From NCBI GenBank assembly GCA_951406725.2, contig OX597818.1, positions 62,434,001-62,498,000 on the forward strand: a stretch of 64,000 nucleotides of DNA, given 5' to 3'. Positions 26,341-58,263 of this stretch are shown piece by piece. The DNA comes from Octopus vulgaris (lineage: Eukaryota). Made by a program: the position numbers and the translations under genes. The notes beneath the pieces are model-generated. The model was not told the DNA's origin, did not search any database, and saw only the letters and a list, made by a program, of their open reading frames with translations. Position 1 is the stretch's first letter; each line of letters opens with the position of its first letter.

Positions 26341-26557
26341 AGCAGCAACAATATCAACGACAACAATAACAACAACTATGTCGACGACAATAAGAAAGTA
26401 TAACAACAAGAACGATAACACGATTATACCAACGACGATAAGAGCAATGTCAACAACAATTACAATAACAAGAATATTAACAGCGTAGACAACAACTACA
26501 AGAAGCCGACAAAATTTACGGCAACAACAACAACAGCAACTAAAAACACTTTCTTTT

Positions 26558-26695
26558 TCAAATTCCGCCGAGGTCGACTTCGCTTTTCATGCTTTCGGGG
26601 TTGATAAATTAAGTACCAGTTACGTACTGGGGTCAATCTAATCGATTGGCCCCCTCGAGAAAAAAGTCGGGCCTTGTGCTTAGAATAGAAAAGGA
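26558..26695 (+). mobile_element. 5'-truncated Nin-domain-like SINE, tail A
   Basis: TTCAAATTCCGCCGAGGTCGACTT ... GGCCTTGTGCTTAGAATAGAAAAG. Confidence 0.8.
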
Positions 26696-26711
26696 GGGAA
26701 AAAAAACAATA

Positions 26712-27295
26712 AACCTTTCTACTCTAGGCACAAGGCCCGAAATTTGGGGGGAGGAGGCGAGTCGATTAGATCAACCCCAGTACGTAACTGGTATTTAACT
26801 TATCTATCCCGAAAGGATGAAAAGCAAAGTCGACCTACCTCAGTGGAATTTGAACTCAGAACATGAAGACAAACGAAATACCTATTTCTTTACTGCCCAC
26901 AAGGGGCTAGACACAAAGGGGACAAGCAAGGACAGACAAACGGATTAAGTCGATTATATGGACCCCAGTGCGTAACTGGTACTTATTTAACCAACTCCGA
27001 AAAGATGAAAGGCAAAGTCGACCTCGGCAGATTTGAACTCAGAACGTAACGGTAGACGAAATACCTATTTCTTTACTACCCAAAAGGGGCTAAACATTGA
27101 GTGGACAAACAAGAACATACAAAGGGATTAAGTCGATACATCGACTCCAGTGCGTAACTGGTACATAAATTATCGACCCCGAAAGGATGAAAGGCAAAGT
27201 CGACCTCCGCGGAATTTGAACTCAGAACGTAGCGGCAGACGAAATACGGCTACATATTTCGCCTGGCGTGCTAACGACTCTGCCAGCTCACCGCT
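26712..27295 (-). mobile_element. Tandem array of three Nin-domain-like SINE bodies (head-body-tailB-body-tailB-body-tailA)
   Basis: Internal junctions read AAAGAAATA|GGTATTTCGT on the minus strand (27056-27065 and 26873-26882). Confidence 0.9.
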
Positions 27296-29634: not shown

Positions 29635-30150
29635 GGATTAAGCCCCACTCCCCGATCACCACTGGTATCACTTTTACATTAGCCTCTCGCATTCCATACA
29701 GCTTTGCCATTTCTTCTTTCAGTTCGGAGCACTTGGTGATTTTTTTCAACTTCTTTACTCACAGCATTCACGTCGTTTGATACGGCTACATCAATGATCT
29801 GATAGTATCTGTCTCTCTTATTCAATATGACAATATTAATGTTTTTTTTTGTGCACGATCAGCCATTTTGTGATTATATACCGGATTAAGCCCCACTCCC
29901 CGATCACCACTGGTATCACTTTTACACTAGCCACTCGCATTCCATACAGTTTTGCCATTTCTTCTTTCAATTCGGAGCACTTGGTGATTTTTTTCAACTT
30001 CTTTACTCACAGCATTCACGTCGTTTGATACGGCTACATCAATGATCTGATAGTATCTGTCTCTCTTATTCAATATGACAATATTAATGTGTTTTTCTTT
30101 TTTTTGTGCACGATCAGCCATTTTGTGATTATATACCGGAGTGGAAACCA
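29635..30150 (-). pseudogene. Tandemly duplicated (period about 248 bp) fragment of an R4/Dong-like restriction-like endonuclease domain
   Basis: NIVILNKRDRYYQIIDVAVSNDVNAVSKEVEK resembles the RLE PD..D..K region. GGATTAAGCCCCACTCC starts at 29635 and 29883. Confidence 0.7.
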
Positions 30151-31987: not shown

Positions 31988-32384
31988 TATTTATTGATTT
32001 TTAATTTCCAAAACTTGAGAGTCGCATTATGTTCGAGATCACAACTTGCTCAAGGAAGACAAAGATATAGAAGAGTGATTTTTGACTGTGAAACGAACCT
32101 GCATCTTAACCCATATATACCCCGGGTTGCATTTTCGCAACACAAAACCTGCTTCTACATGTTTGGACATGAACTCACCAGGAAGCATGTGACTGACCAT
32201 ACGAAACGTCCAGTAGGCAGTCGACACCCCTAGCTAAGTCTTTTAAGAATTCATATTTAATGGGCAGATATGAGTTGATTTTTACCACCTTATGTACCCA
32301 CAAGTATAAGACAATCTAAATAAACATTATTTACATTATTTACATTAGTCGGATATTTGTCCTCATCTTGTTTGTTGCTAAAAT

Positions 32385-32716
32385 CGTTAACACGCCGGGC
32401 GAAATGCTTTGTGGTATTTCGTCCGCCGCTGCATTCTGAGCTCAAATTCCGCCGAGGTCGACTTTGCCTTTCATTCTTTCGGGGTCGATTAAATAAGTAC
32501 CAGTTACGCACTGGGATCGATATAATCGACTTAATCCGTTTGTCTGTCTTTGTTTGTCCTCTCTATGTTTAGCCCCTTGTGGGTAGTAAAGAAATAGGTA
32601 TTTCGTCTGTCTTTACGATCGATGTTCAAATTCCACCGAGGCTGACTTTGCGTTTCATCTTTGAGGTCGATAAAATAAGCACCAGTTGAGTACTGGGGTC
32701 GACGTAATCGACTTAA
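32385..32716 (+). mobile_element. Tandem dimer of Nin-domain-like SINE
   Basis: Body-tailB, then GGTATTTCGT (32597-32606) and a second, more degenerate body. Confidence 0.88.
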
Positions 32717-32796: not shown

Positions 32797-33008
32797 GGCG
32801 GCGAGCTGGCTGAAGTGTTAGCACTCCGGACGAAATGCTTAGCGGTATTTCGTTCATTGCTACGTTCCGAGTTCAAATTCCGCCGTGGTCGATTTTGCCT
32901 TTCATCCTTTCGCGGTCGATAAATTAAGTACCATTTGCGTACTGGGATCGATGTAATAGACTGGCCTCCTCCCCCAAAATTTCAGGCCTTGTGCCTAGAA
33001 TAGAAAAG
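32797..33008 (+). mobile_element. Full-length Nin-domain-like SINE, tail A (uninterrupted target form)
   Basis: GGCGGCGAGCTGGC head, CTTAGCGGTATTTCGT intact, GCCTTTCATCCTTTCGCGGTCGATAAATTAAGTACCA domain, GGCCTTGTGCCTAGAATAGAAAAG tail. Confidence 0.88.
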
Positions 33009-40092: not shown

Positions 40093-40703
40093 GTGTGTCT
40101 GTATGTCTGTGTGTGTGTCAGTGTACGTGAGACTGTCTGTCTGTCTATCTGTCTATCCATACATACATATATACATAAATATATAAATATGAACACACAC
40201 ACACATCTATCGTGAACACGTGCATGCACACGCGAACGTAGCGAATCGTAGCTATAGAAACTGCTTCTGGAGAGAAACTGTCCTTATAGACAACGCGTGT
40301 TAGTTTAGACCTCCTTTACTCAAACTAGCACATTTTCATCACAGATTATCCATCCATGACAAACTCCCCTTTTTAAGAATTGCACTGGAATACAATATTT
40401 AATGTAGCATTCGCTTAATTTAAGATAGTAGCGTGTGATTTAAGGAGAGTGGTTGCTATTTCTAGCAGGCTGTACGAAGTTGGTCCAATAGGATTATAGA
40501 TTAGTTATGATAGTATTAGCACAACGAATTTTCCTACAGAATATCTCAGTTGTTCTCTGTATTGAAGTTTATATTATATTTATAGGCAGAGGTGTGCAGT
40601 TGAAAAACTCACCACATGACTAAAAGCTAAGCAGCCTCGTCATATTGTCAAATCTCCAGTCGGATCGACCAGAAATCTTTACTTAACCAACAGCTGGACA
40701 AAC

Positions 40704-40921
40704 GCAGAAACGTTAGCATGACGGGCGAAATGCTTAGCAGTGATTCGTCTGCCGTTACGTTCTGAGTTCGAATTCCGCCGAGGTCAACTTTGTCTTCCAT
40801 CCATTTGGGGTCGATAAATTAAGTACCAGTTAAGCACTGGGGTCGATGTAAGAGACTTAATCCGTTTGTCTGTCCTTGTTTGTCCCCTCTGTGTGTAGCC
40901 CCTTGTGGGCACTAAAGAAAT
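40704..40921 (+). mobile_element. Nin-domain-like SINE with tail B
   Basis: Matches the family. Flanked by AACAGCTG(G/A)ACAAA at about 40689 and 40932. Confidence 0.85.
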
Positions 40922-41221
40922 CAGAAGTAAGAAACAGCTGAACAAAAGAATTTTGGGGCGAAAACTACACCAAATCCTTACAGATACTCACACATTCACA
41001 CGTAGACACTTTCAAACACACGAGCGTGCTCGCACACAGAAACAAACACACCCATGCACACACGCACACATACGCAAACACATATATATGTATACGAAAA
41101 ACATATGAACATACAGATGACTCAAGAGTTCGTCGTGTGAAAGTTGCGATGCGAGATAAATATTATATCAATCAACTATGTGGCGTATATGCAGGGGTGT
41201 ATGTGTGTAGATTTGTATATG

Positions 41222-47371: not shown

Positions 47372-48276
47372 GACACAAACCTATATATCGCAAAAGGCTC
47401 ATAGGTATTGTTGCAACTATTTTTTAGCTACAGTTCAGTCTTAGCCAAGGAGACATATGATTGAAGACGTTGCCTTTGTGACCATCTTGTTTATATTTCT
47501 AGCAGTGTATCTAGTATTCTTTTGTAAGAAGACAACAGTGAGGGAGATTTGGCTTTTATTTCTAGTATGGTGAGCGATCTCATAGCGCCTACCACATTGG
47601 TTCGAGGAACACAATGGCTGATGGGTCACGTGGGATGGATGATGGAAGGGGGCCAAAGCGGGGCGAAAGGTCAAGTGACAACAGGTGGAAGGTTTGAGAT
47701 AAAAGAAAAGATAAGGGATGCTGTCACTTAAAAAAGGACGAGTGAGATGTCACGTGATGGCAGGATCATCATCACCATCATCGTCCCCACGACCACTACT
47801 ATCCTCATTCTACTATTGTCATCATCATCACAACCACTATCATCATCATCATGAACTGGCCGACACTTGACCCTTCTTGCTTAATGATGAGAGAAGAGGA
47901 GAGGAGTCCGAAGAATTAAAACTATTATTATTGTAGCCCTTGTGGCCAATGAACGAATTAATTATTAATGGATTGATAGCATCAGTGAAGTACCGGAAGA
48001 AATGCTCGGCAGTATTTCTTCCGGAGTTTTGTCTTTAGCTCAAATCCCGTCCAAGTTAACTTTTTGCTCTCTTCCTTTCTAGGCTGGCAGAATCGTTAGA
48101 GCATTGGGAAGATGCTTTGCGGCACTTCTTCAAATTCATTCTGCAGCGGTCATCTTTTCGAGATCAATGAATAAAGTACCAGTTATGCACTGGGGATGAT
48201 GTAATCGACTCCCTCACCCCCCACACTGCTGACTTTGTGCCAAGCAGACTCGAACTGATAACATTACAATTTTTAG

Positions 48277-48507
48277 GGCGACGAGCTGGCACAAACGTTA
48301 GCACGCCGGGTGAAATGCGTAGCCGTATTTCGTCTGCCGTTACGTTGTGAGTTCAAATTCAGCCGAGGTCGACTTTGCCTTTCATCCTTTCGGGGTCGAT
48401 AAATTAAGTACCAGTTACGCACTGGGGTCGATGTAATTGACTTAATCCCTTTGTCTGTCCTTGTTTGTCCTCTCTGTGTTTAGCCCCTTGTGGGTAGTAA
48501 AGAAATA
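48277..48507 (+). mobile_element. Full-length Nin-domain-like SINE with tail B, directly upstream of the LINE
   Basis: Family consensus ending AAAGAAATA, followed by GGTATTTCGT (48508-48517). Confidence 0.9.
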
Positions 48508-48692
48508 GGTATTTCGTACGTGTGTTGCTGAAAATATATTGTTGGAGTGTGTTCGTAAGTTTCTGTTAATTGTTATATCTCTTGTTGTGCCTATTGTTGG
48601 ACTTATTGTTGAAAAAAATTGTTGTAGGATAGTTTTCTTTCGAAAGTTATCTGGGGATTCTCCTGTGGGTGAAAATATTAATAGCTGGCAAG

Positions 48693-49510
48693 ATGCCGAA
48701 AAGTTCTTCTTCGTCGTGGGACGAATCATCGATTGAGCGAGAAGCAAAGAAAATAGAAAGCTTAATTTTTTATAACGTTTCTGATGTGTCGGAAAGCGAA
48801 TTTTCGGGATTTACCAAGAGTTACGAACACCAAAAGAAAGACCGAAGAAAGGACCATCCAAAATAAAGAAAAGAAAATTTTGCGTTAGTGGCTGGTGGTG
48901 GAACGCGACAGCTGTCAACTGACATAAAAGAATTATTAAACTATAAAGATATGATAACAGAACGAGATGGAATAGTAAAAGTGGAAATACCCGAAGAAGA
49001 ATTAACAGAGGAAAAAAGAAAATTATTATTTTTAAGACATTCTGCTTAGAAGCTTGTAAAATTGATAAAATATGTGATCAAAAAATTGAAAACCCATCTG
49101 GCAGAACATTACATATCTAGCTAGAGGAAAGAAGTTTGGAACCATCGTGGTGAGGTTCAAGAATGCAGAAACGGCACAAAAACACTCTATAAAATCTTTA
49201 GAGTAGGAAGACACAACGTTAATCTCAATTTATATGGGAATGAGAACATCAAAAGTGAGAATTCCAAGAATTCCGCCCGGAATAAATCCTATGAGCTTGA
49301 TGGCGGCAGTCCTGGCAAAAAGGGAAGATAATATCAACCTCCTGCAAGCTACAGTCACAGAAGATACCTATTGAACTGGTCAAACGCTTGACCTCATACT
49401 GCAGGGTGACCAAAAAAATTTCAGAACAGCTCCCAGAAATCGTGGAAGTAGGGGAAGAAGTTCTAAATATTTTTGTTGAGGGGCGTAGGCCACGATGTTT
49501 CCAGTGTGAC
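48693..49510 (+). pseudogene. LINE ORF1 (gag-like) remnant
   Basis: MPKSSSSSWDESSIEREAKKIE..SDVSESEF, NYKDMITERDGIVKV and a zinc-knuckle start RPRCFQC. Broken by stops and frameshifts. Confidence 0.75.
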
Positions 49511-51657
49511 CCGGGCTGCCGGGCTGCCGTGCCTCTCGGGGTCGGATGCAGAGTCTTGCGAAGGGCCAATCACGCCTGTTGAGGTGATGGAGGCTTTGGC
49601 CGACTGTAAAGCGGGTAAGTCACCAGGACATGATGGTCTTCCGTACGAACTGTATAAGTGTATGCGAGACTTGTTCGGGCAACTACTGGCTGACGTGTAC
49701 GCGAACTGGCAACAGAATGGGTTTATCCCTAGATCTGTGCGCCGGGGAGTAGTGGCGTTGGTCAGAAAAGACCCGGACAAGGGAGATGTTATAGAGAATT
49801 TCAGGCCTATCACTCTGTTAAACACAGAAGTGAAGATTTTGGCCAAGGTCTTAGCAAAAAGGTTGGCATGCGTCGCGAATGGTATAGTCGGGTAGGCACA
49901 AGCATGTACCATCCCAGGCAGAACCATTCAGGATACTCTCCATCTTATTCGCTATTCCATAGAGAGTGTTGGTAATAAATCTGGCAAAGGTGGGGCATTG
50001 GTACATTTTAGACCAGTCTAAAGCTTTTGATTGGGTTGACCATCTATACCTGGCGAGTGTGCTTGCGGGGTTCGGCCTGAGCCTTAGCTTCCTCAGGCGG
50101 TTTATCGCTTTGTACCACAACATTGACTCGATAGTTCGGGTGAACAGTTTCGTTTCGAAGCCGCTCTGCATCAGACGCTCGGTTCGTCAAGGATGTCCGC
50201 TCTCACCACTTTTGTATATAATGGCTCTCGAGCCCCTACTGCGAAGGTTGAGTGACATCCCGAGAGAACCAGGTCTAGAGGAGTTTGTTACGGCTTACGC
50301 GGATGATATCACTATCAGTGTAACCTCGGTAGCACGCCTACGTGAAGTGGGTAAGACTATTGAAGCTTACGAGGAGGTGGAAGGAACAAAGATTAACCGA
50401 CGCATTCAGACTCTACCAGCCTAGGTAAATCTTCGGCACCTAGGTTGGCAAGTCGATGCCTTCAGACAGCGTTTTTGGCGCTGGACGGAGGGACCGGTTA
50501 AGTTGCTGGGAGTTTAGTTTGGACCAGATCTCCAGACAGAGATGAATTGGACGGAGATATTGAGCAGGTGGCTGCAGTAGTCAAGACCTGGTCTTGGCGG
50601 TGTCTATCCCTGAAAGGGAGGGCGGAGGTGGCCAATGTGTTTATCGCATCGGTCATTACTTACCGCCTGACCGTCGTGCCCTGTTCGGATTCGTGGTTGA
50701 TCAGGTATGAGAGACAGCTCTTTCGCATTTTGTGGAAGGGCAGGTCGCGACTTGTGAAACGCTGTGTCTGCTGTCAAAAGCCTTTAAAGGGAGGTTTAGG
50801 GATGCCTTGGTTAATGATGCTCAGACATGCGTTGAGGTTGAGGCACCTCTGGATTCTCCTGGATAGTGGACGAGTGTGGTCTCCGCTGGCCAGACAAATC
50901 TTTCCCGAGTTCAAAACTTTTGCGATCAAGAAGCCTGGTGTTTCTCGCAGACCGAGGTCGAGTGAGTGGCATAAAGAGTGCCGTAAGGCCCTCTTGCTAT
51001 TCCGGCGCTCGGACAACGCCAGCAGTGGGGGTTCCACACGGATTTTATATAGTGGGTTGGTAGAGTCTGAATGCGTCGATGGCCTGGGGGTGACTCTAGG
51101 TCTCGGGTTTATTCAAATGGACAGCCTGTTTCACTGTACATTCGGGTTGAGAACGTTGGACAACTTCTAAAAGTCCTTAACTTGGCAATGCTACAGAGGT
51201 GCCTTGCCCGTTTGGGATAAGCTCCCAAGACATGGTAAGCGTCAGTCGCCGACCTGTCCAAGATGCGGGGGGGGGGCAGGGAAACCGTCCCTCACGCTAT
51301 TGTTCAGTGTCGGAGATAACTTAAATGTGGGCTTATGCTGAACACCTGTTGTCCGGCGAAGGAAGAGTACGGCTGTCGACTGAGTCAATAATAAAAATTG
51401 ACTCACCGGGAGTTTTAACGAGCGATCGTAATAATTGTTTCATCACGGTTGTAGCAATAGCGAAAGATTCAGTATGGAAGACTAGGATAAAAGGAATTAA
51501 GGCAGGCAACTTTATCTTTGGCCACAATTTACGATCATTTTTTTCTTTTCATTTGGAAAGGAAGCTGTGGCTGGAGAAGAGATATCTGTCGGAGTGTACG
51601 TTCCAAAAGAGATGGAAGCATGTAGCACGAGTATTGTGCGTGCAAAGAACCGTGTGA
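49510..51657 (+). pseudogene. LINE ORF2 reverse transcriptase and C-terminal cysteine-rich region, disrupted
   Basis: RT motifs spread over ORFs 49473-49895, 49966-50424, 50547-51170 and 51325-51657. Confidence 0.92.
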
Positions 51658-51905
51658 ATAGACGGAAAAAAAGAAGAAAAAAAGGTACCAGCGGTAGATC
51701 GTGGCTTGTGTGGTCGGAGCGGGACCTGATCATCGCTTCATTTGTATTGTTTTTGTATTGTTAGTTCCATTCCATTTTTTTCTATTGTATTTAAATTTTT
51801 AAAGTCATATTATATGTAAAATCATATCACTTCACTGATCCCATCAGTTGTTCTGTCCATTTCTATGTTTGGCCCCCGGTGGGCAATAAAGAATTGGTAT
51901 TGCGT

Positions 51906-52506
51906 CAGTGTGAGTTGGAAGTGTTGGTATTGTTACCGAAGTGCGTCTGTATAGTATGTGTAGTTTCTGTTGATTGTTTCCGTGTTGTTGCCTGTTTTAA
52001 TTGCTGTTAAAATTTGTATAATAGTTTTTGTTTGAAATCTATTGTGTGTGTTTTCCTCAGTAGGGGAGACACTATTTACTGGCAGGATGCCAAAAATTGT
52101 GTATTTATATGACGAGGATTCGACAGATTTGGAGGCCAGAAAAGTGGAAAAAGTATTGTTGGAAGATGTTACGGATTCGTCTGAGAGCGAATTCCCACCA
52201 CTGTCGAGGACTGACGTTGCAGGGAAGAGCGTCGAAGTGAAAAGACTTCAAACGGAGGAGGGTAAAGAGAAAAGAAGTTTGCGTCTGCAGCTGCAGACAG
52301 AACTCGCCAACTGTCGACGAAGAAAAGTGACGTTTTAATGTACAAAGACATGATAAAAATTCAAGACGGCGTTGTCAAGGTTCAACCCGCAGAAGAGCTT
52401 TTATTGACAGAGAAGAAAAAAACAATTACGTTTAAAACATACTGCCGAAAAGAAAAAATCGAGCGAGTAAGCGAGGAGAAGGTAGAAAAATGTCTAAATA
52501 TGTTCG
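51906..52506 (+). mobile_element. 5' UTR and ORF1 start of a second, diverged Tx1-type LINE in tandem
   Basis: GT-rich UTR. From 52087, MPKIVYLYDEDSTDLEARKVE..TDSSESEF and YKDMIKIQDGVVKV align by eye with the first ORF1. Confidence 0.85.
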
Positions 52507-57183: not shown

Positions 57184-57995
57184 TACAGATTACGGCAGAA
57201 AGGTCACCCCGATTTCAAAGGTTAATAAAATACAAACACATAAAATGCCTGAAAAGACTTTGAATTTCTATGAAGTACATTAAATGCTATTTTTGATTCT
57301 GTTTCAAGTGTTAGTCAATATGGCCTGGAGTGGAGATCATTGTCCATTTATTGTTGAAGAGTTTGTTAAGATCGGTGAATCAGTCGTAACGACGCAACAT
57401 TCCTTCCGAAGACCCTTTGCGCTTCGTCGTCATAATCCCGTACCGGATGGAAAATCAATTCGTCGGTGAGTTTCCAACTGTAAACAAACATCATCGGCTT
57501 TAAACAGGAAAAGTCCTGGTTGTCCTAGGACCGTTACAGGGCCAGAAAATGTCGTAGCTGTAGCAGCATCTATACAACAATCTCCCAGACGTTTCGCACG
57601 AAACCACGATTCTGCCTTACACATGTCCAATCGAAGTGTCCGCAGAATCTTGCATATGTTTCTTCACACGCATCCCTACAAGATAATGATTGTACAGTAT
57701 GTAAGCGAGAGGGATCACGAAACCCGCCCAGATTTGTGTCGAGACGTTCTCCAGACCATCCTCCCAACAGCTGTTCTGGTCTGCAGTGATGGAGCGCACA
57801 TCCATTTATCGGGGATGGTCAATAAACAAAACTTTCGTTACTGGTCAGACAATAACCATCGTGAACTCCACGAACGGCCACACGACAGTGCGAAGGTTAC
57901 CGTCTGGTGTGCCATGGGTGATTTTGGCGTGTGGGGTCCTTATATTTTCAGAGAAAAAGGTGTTACAGTAACTCTTACATCGGACCCCTATTGTG
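57184..57995 (+). mobile_element. Tc1/mariner (rosa/DD41D-like) transposase pseudogene, 3'-truncated
   Basis: ATG at 57320, in-frame stop at 57467, GCPRTV, HPYKIMIVQ, CSDGAHIHLSGMVNKQNFRYW and KVTVWCAM..GVWGPYIF. Ends at a SINE 3' fragment. Confidence 0.9.
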
Positions 57996-58143
57996 ATACT
58001 GCTTCAAAGGTTTCGCCGTCCAAAAGTCGTCCTGGGATCGATTTGTTCAACTTAGGGCGGTGCTCCAGCATGGCCGCAATCAAATGGCTGAAACAAATAA
58101 AAAATATATATACACATATATTGATACATATATACATATATTG

Positions 58144-58263
<120 letters not shown>

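Follow-up and report, generated by a model that had tools for sequence, protein, structure and literature searches.

In crocodilians, Tx1-Mar LINEs and SINEU elements share a target in a Mariner element, and SINEs and LINEs stack there (PMC4494074). Tandems of SINEU-3 sandwich the target duplication and have been interpreted as sequential insertions (Kojima 2015, PMC4494074). The same source gives further LINEs with preferred multicopy targets, namely Tx1L (target Tx1D), Keno (U2), and Kibi and Koshi (microsatellites); a SINE head is absent from the targets given there (PMC4494074). In the clam Scapharca broughtonii, SINE arrays open with a full head, continue with headless units and close with a complete tail (PMC11481361). 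The octopus OR1/OR2 elements are tRNA-derived CORE-SINEs with a conserved central domain (PMC4824008, PMC4758252, PMC5804259, citing Ohshima and Okada 1994), and the text and supplements of PMC4824008 and PMC4758252, with one supplementary file of each outside the search, held no match to the motifs studied here. We found no description of the octopod junction reported below, or of a self-targeting SINE, in the openly accessible literature. In tandem Alu elements a re-created target is re-used; whole heads are kept and the sites are A-rich. Zepp makes nested insertions into its own copies, and we know of no SINE partner for it. R2 targets rDNA with a restriction-like nuclease, and its 5' junctions are sealed by upstream homology, giving an annealed, seamless join.

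We analysed a stretch of 64 kb from Octopus vulgaris (the window), which holds about a dozen copies of a short, dispersed SINE family that may, as a lead, be OR1/OR2. The family is also numerous beyond the window, with 458,536 and 208,955 matching contigs in two sequencing runs. Three units form an array (table 1), whose order on the minus strand, one headed and two headless units with a different terminal tail, was given in a preliminary description of this DNA and is confirmed here. The array has a period of 183 bp, with 2.6 copies and 82% matches (TRF). The A-box-like and B-box-like motifs of the head were read by eye against what we take to be their consensus. ARAGORN called 0 tRNA genes for this head; Rfam gave no tRNA match and nothing at the gathering level between 26 and 33.5 kb, and on the latter ground the idea of a hammerhead or other ribozyme unit, a retrozyme copied by rolling circle, was dropped. 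Together with a facing tail-A copy, the array forms an inverted repeat of about 140 bases (26557-26760) that could fold as double-stranded RNA.

Table 1. Positions in the window of the SINE array, the dimer, the partner LINEs and the other SINE copies discussed in the text.
Feature	Position	Strand	Remarks
Whole array	26712..27295	-	Head-body-tail B / GGTATTTCGT-body-tail B / GGTATTTCGT-body-tail A
Lone SINE head of the array	27249..27295	-	tRNA-like position; A-box-like part; 5' arm of hairpin
U1	27066..27248	-	Body and tail B; B1 variant, resembling the copies at 48.3 and 24.7 kb; lowest divergence of the three units (4/108 body sites)
Junction motif U1/U2	27056..27065	-	GGTATTTCGT; putative target-site duplication
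U2	26883..27065	-	Body and tail B without head, variant B2; range includes leading GGTATTTCGT
Junction motif U2/U3	26873..26882	-	GGTATTTCGT
U3	26712..26882	-	Body and tail A without head, non-B lineage; range includes leading GGTATTTCGT; most diverged (11/109 body sites)
Separate tail-A copy	26557..26691	+	5'-truncated; tail-to-tail with the array
Dimer	32384..32716	+	5'-truncated head, B2 body, tail B, motif (32597-32606), older non-B body, no tail reached
Tail-B SINE (48.3 kb copy)	48276..48507	+	Young; abuts LINE1 upstream
LINE1	48508..51895	+	L1-like; starts with GGTATTTCGT; 5' UTR, ORF1 from 48693, broken ORF2
LINE1, RT and C-terminal part	49521-51651	+	RVT_1, E 4.6e-16
LINE1, 3' end	51848..51895	+	Homology to tail B of the SINE over 46 nt (about 82%); tail-B profile E 1.1e-6
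LINE2, 5' part	51896..52489	+	Second, diverged copy; starts with GGTATTGCGT right after the LINE1 tail; ORF1 from 52087; remainder outside the window
Tail-B SINE (12.9 kb copy)	12876..13097	+	Antisense inside a tail-A resident; 14-bp duplication starting GTATT (12846-12859, 13099-13112), 0/300 null
Split tail-A resident, 5' half	13098..13238	-	
Split tail-A resident, 3' half	12770..12855	-	End of body and tail A
Tail-B monomer (24.7 kb copy)	24681..24907	+	13-bp duplication (24669-24681, 24908-24920), 0/300 null; no motif past the tail
Tail-B monomer (40.7 kb copy)	40706..40932	+	5'-truncated; 14-bp duplication (40689-40702, 40933-40946), 0/300 null; target unlike the motif

The units of the array are unlikely to be local duplicates of one another. 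U1 and U2 are 85.2% alike, whereas U1 matches the dispersed B copies at 89-92%, with the 48.3 kb copy at the top (92.3%); at this locus, adjacent units are therefore no more alike than dispersed ones. The number of non-majority states common to U1 and U2 is zero, and the two differ at sites that vary across the family. For example, three sites that separate them (48404, 48433 and 48449, with the 48.3 kb copy as reference) show the variant at 22%, 27% and 40% of the contig depth in another organism, organism B, and therefore mark subfamilies. U2 has four non-majority states in common with the first unit of the dimer, and three of these sites are common variants in contigs of other organisms. 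U3 and the distal unit of the dimer have body states in common with tail-A copies, and U3 has a 4-base insertion among its private changes. Because U1 and U2 have no private states in common and carry separate subfamily variants, the sequence makes it unlikely that this array was made by local duplication. We reasoned against deletion between neighbouring copies by way of the 10-base motif, since the 120-base bodies would provide much longer homology.

Body divergence is 4/108 sites in U1, 7/108 in U2 and 11/109 in U3, and in the dimer 6/109 in the first unit and 12/107 in the second. These counts exclude ten columns taken to be diagnostic of lineage, and B copies make up most of the reference. 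Pooling proximal and distal units gives 10/217 versus 23/216 differing sites (one-sided p = 0.014); once CpG sites are removed, the comparison (8/177 versus 15/176) is not significant (p = 0.095). The earlier proposal that the array records the order of insertion is thus favoured by the separate sources of the units, the fixed junction and the more diverged distal units, and it is weakened by the loss of the age gradient without CpG sites. As for the dimer, it has the same junction and the older-looking distal unit that had been noted. That unit does not end in tail A: it is non-B by its body sites and breaks off after GACTTAA.

The junction, AAAGAAATAGGTATTTCGT, has four occurrences in the window and any match in 0/100 shuffles, and its position is the same at 4/4 SINE junctions of the window, in line with the fixed position described before. 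We retrieved tail-B ends by a profile search (E < 1e-5, n = 8), dropping eight weaker matches (E > 0.04) that belong to another repeat. Five of the eight ends in the window are followed by the motif GGTATT(T/G)CGT, and the five sequences downstream of it all differ: a B2 body, a tail-A body, an older body, the LINE1 5' end and the LINE2 5' end. The motif thus joins SINE to SINE, SINE to LINE and LINE to LINE. A sixth end, at 12.9 kb, is followed by GTATT, which is found in its upstream duplication too. Since the other two of the eight ends lie at unrelated targets, the motif is a preference and no absolute rule.

A 12-bp hairpin with a 4-base loop is predicted in the SINE head, between the A-box-like and the B-box-like parts; the motif starts immediately 3' of the loop, and variant B1 has a paired change at the loop-closing position. 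The head folds better than its shuffles in two of three copies (z -2.15, -3.60 and -0.67), and the junction itself folds no better than shuffles (z +0.62). The array head is possibly chimeric, with a T where four B monomers have A, as in two non-B heads; this is one site and a hint only.

Stand-alone tail-B copies have target-site duplications of 13-14 bp in 3/3 cases (0/300 null each), and the matching length of the motif at the joints, 10-13 bases, is near that size. GT starts two of the three targets defined by duplications, and the motif likewise has GT after its first G. At 12.9 kb, the upstream duplication copy has expanded into a short (CATTT)n run (12846-12872). The 24.7 kb copy sits in the head of another short repeat family (24640-25000), and its 13-bp duplication starts with GT. 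The 48.3 kb copy follows immediately on the end of an old non-B SINE (48078-48262) that has the same orientation. A reading in which the 48.3 kb copy is a monomer, with the motif as its end and unique DNA beyond, was rejected: the DNA downstream is a LINE 5' end. Elsewhere in the window, two near-perfect two-copy tandem duplications span 22518-22879 and 29635-30140 (190 and 248 bases, 95-96% matches), and reading frames on the minus strand at 7983-8372 and 57470-58144 resemble what we take, by their motifs, to be remnants of Tc1/mariner transposases.

The DNA that follows the 48.3 kb copy contains a LINE and the beginning of a second one. SINE and LINE have a 3' tail in common as regards tail B, not as regards tail A with LINE1: the score of tail B against the LINE1 end was reached in 0/2000 shuffles and that of tail A in 1318/2000. 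The last 20-27 bases of tail A are weakly like tail B (26712-26760 and 32960-33008 against 48442-48507; 17, 1 and 34 of 2000 shuffles). Because of this weak similarity, related LINEs may be the source of the two tails, and the same enzyme might also start on tail A. The alignment of LINE2 to LINE1 begins at base 1 and scores 245, the highest of 200 shuffles being 44, with a likeness of only about 66-69% in BLAST pieces. LINE1 fits the L1 group by its RVT_1 domain in the window, by the APE, RT and zf-RVT domains that its relatives carry, and by a close relative, P0002, which is closest to human L1 ORF2p (E 4e-50), with R2 far more distant (4e-24). The APE part is lost: nothing in LINE1 matches the endonuclease region of a full-length relative. 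The best named relatives are from Argonauta hians, and named Tx1 proteins were absent from the LINE database matches. L1-like elements of O. vulgaris have been filed as L1-Tx1, in 80 families, in a work whose supplement does not mention 'target' or 'nested' (PMC13282606). The LINE starts show no SINE body after the motif, and LINE2 runs on past the window, so that a SINE resident beneath the LINE pair would be hypothetical. LINE1 also has an internal 24-base inverted match (51055-51078 and 50398-50421).

The motif stands at 1/1 LINE 3' ends and 2/2 LINE 5' ends of the window, which represent one locus and two copies. A Tx1 family has been called target-specific when more than 20% of its flanks are of one kind (PMC4494074). 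Beside that figure stand these LINE ends and, for tail-B ends, 5/8 in the window and 20-39% and 9-16% of depth in two other organisms. The latter values come from a comparison of four of 24 sequencing runs with the 48.3 kb copy, at 80% likeness, and represent contig depths added up, which should not be read as copy numbers. For organism B (contigs of run X4), the second base of the motif has 39% of the depth found near the tail end (20% as a bin-based ratio); for organism C (X10) the value is 16% (9%). In the next bin past the motif, depth falls to 0.05% (X4) and 0.009% (X10).

Joints that return from the tail end account for seven of the 15 listed among at least 519. In five of these seven rows (26 contigs) the landing point lies 6-15 bases beyond where the motif itself stands, consistent with an in-register join to non-B bodies; the remaining two (6 contigs) have other landing points. 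The exact in-register joint of B to B is absent among the 15 listed of at least 519 joints and among 12 of 304 in a second table; we suspect that very short contigs hold it. One further row (5 contigs in X4, 1 in X10) returns from the tail branch point and may represent a non-B internal tail, an exception to the rule that internal tails are of type B. The raw runs X22 and X23, from organism A, gave only 20 and 222 matching reads of 12.9 million each, clustered on few loci, which make no census; this scarcity contrasts with the hundreds of thousands of matching contig pieces. Reads of X23 contain short tandem units made of tail B and a motif variant leading back to the start of the tail, i.e. 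a satellite derived from the joint. Pattern scans of viral, metagenome and prokaryote contigs gave 0 matches, and a scan of viral contigs for the LINE protein gave none that was confirmed.

We lean towards the view that three SINE units of separate lineages were brought together at one fixed motif by repeated target-primed insertion, carried out by an L1/Tx1-type partner LINE with a preference for the SINE's own head. This is the best explanation, in which endonuclease specificity and annealing are steps that we infer. The LINE endonuclease would nick (G)GTATTTCG, just 3' of the loop of the head hairpin. Tail-B RNA would be copied at the nick and the motif duplicated into the joint, such that the motif at each joint would represent a duplicated target. 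The head copy in the cDNA would then anneal to the resident head, leaving no second head and allowing the head to take the newcomer's letters. The motif beside the head would be restored and could be hit again, so that the units would grow older from the head towards the resident at the far end.

The annealing step is needed because a search upstream found no second head or remnant for any of three loci (array, dimer and 48.3 kb copy), and none of them showed a flanking duplication. Full-copy insertion would leave extra heads, and since none was found, a homology-sealed 5' join must be added to it; all four cases of a SINE on the motif would have to seal without a second head. A model with an unchanged resident head fails, and replacement must be assumed, because the head adjacent to the motif is of B1 type, like U1, in both the array and the 48.3 kb copy. 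The preliminary description had pictured a tail-A SINE hit successively by tail-B copies at one site. Tail-B copies did land in tail-A residents, as at 12.9 kb; it is the full-copy insertion that makes this picture incomplete. Because the motif joins SINE to LINE and LINE to LINE as well, the habit of inserting there would belong to the partner LINE, and not solely to tail-B SINEs that meet tail-A SINEs; this target-preferring LINE is the likely driver that had been missed.

Sequential insertion might also do without a site-specific nuclease, which we regard as possible but doubtful. The 3' end of a read-through tail-B or LINE RNA, carrying the motif, would pair with any nick at GTATTTCG, the SINE head being the commonest such site, and the array would still record the order of insertion. 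The tail variant ending in AGTAAAGAAATAG is followed by GTATT in 5/5 window copies, and the copies with other tail ends, at 24.7 and 40.7 kb, lie at unrelated targets, which ties the motif to an RNA variant. LINE1, however, has an AATAAAG-type end, and yet the motif follows; RNA pairing by itself also gives no account of why both LINE copies begin with the motif. The GTATT at 12.9 kb, present in both copies of the duplication, is compatible with either view. A rather unlikely account has the whole array produced in one reverse transcription, with template jumps from the RNA 5' end, or from a stall at the hairpin, to the 3' end of another tail-B RNA. The units would then stand in the order of the jumps, not of their ages. 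This accounts for headless internal units and for a joint fixed at the hairpin loop, and agrees with internal units that all end in the LINE-recognised tail, with both LINE copies starting at the motif and with tails A and B being weakly alike at their ends. Template jumping has been named as a source of 5' extensions (PMC4494074). It sits less well with distal units that are more diverged than proximal ones in both composites, and with the lack of a duplication round the whole array (the best match, of 9 nt, was reached in 33/300 of the null set, in a search where the 3' end of the array is disturbed by the inverted copy). Nor do 5' ends pile up at the motif in the contigs, a weak data type for such a test.

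It is very unlikely that the composite was assembled elsewhere and copied in as one read-through RNA of a multimeric master. Most tail-B copies of the window lack a four-T run in these stretches, so that read-through is possible, and complex SINEs are a known class (PMC3531059), but five different sequences follow the motif, which no single master fits, and the question is only shifted to the origin of the masters. We give hardly any credence to unequal crossover between duplicated motifs, local tandem duplication or rolling-circle copying. Unequal recombination between duplications has been proposed for similar SINE arrays of clams (PMC11481361), and the satellite of tail B and motif in X23 indicates that local amplification happens somewhere; at the array locus, a U1 that is closer to dispersed copies than to its neighbour, with no private state in common, largely refutes it.

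Going beyond repeated insertion by a partner LINE, we would advance two ideas jointly, as a tentative conjecture that is more probably wrong than right by a wide measure. The octopod LINE-SINE pair might home to the head hairpin of its own SINE superfamily, each new tail-B copy taking the head while older units lose the A-box part, and rivals would in this way be silenced and replaced in place. The LINE might moreover be transcribed from a captured SINE head, starting at the hairpin loop, in an R2-like co-transcription with the SINE in place of rDNA.

If repeated insertion at the SINE head is true, a very abundant SINE family lands on its own copies, in a species of which SINEs make up 11.6% (PMC13282606). 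The arrays would be ordered records of subfamily activity, allowing direct dating of octopod SINE waves. The head would be a new kind of target for L1/Tx1-type LINEs, and SINE lineages would compete for this promoter-bearing part. For annotation, headless units and multimers should then not be filed as separate families.

How does this locus relate to known systems? With R2 it would have in common a seamless 5' join made by annealing; the target of R2, rDNA, is a difference. The arrays of Scapharca broughtonii are alike in outline: each has a single full head, internal units that lack one and a last tail that differs. For these clam arrays recombination was proposed, and units are highly similar in one of two array types (PMC11481361), whereas the octopus units belong to different subfamilies and their joint is common with a LINE. 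Tx1L, Keno, Kibi and Koshi resemble the octopus LINE in being L1-group LINEs with a preferred target, a putative one in octopus, in multicopy sequence (PMC4494074). The closest known case is that of SINEU-3 and Tx1-Mar, where, as we propose here, SINE and LINE have a target preference in common and tandems form around a target duplication. The octopus SINE also shares a 3' tail with its LINE, whereas none was found for SINEU-1 in that work (PMC4494074). In SINEU-3 the target is a separate Mariner element and the units keep their heads; in octopus the target would lie in the SINE's own head, and the internal units are headless. Site-preferring Tx1-type LINEs that stack with their SINEs are thus an already known habit, of which self-targeting would be the variant found here.
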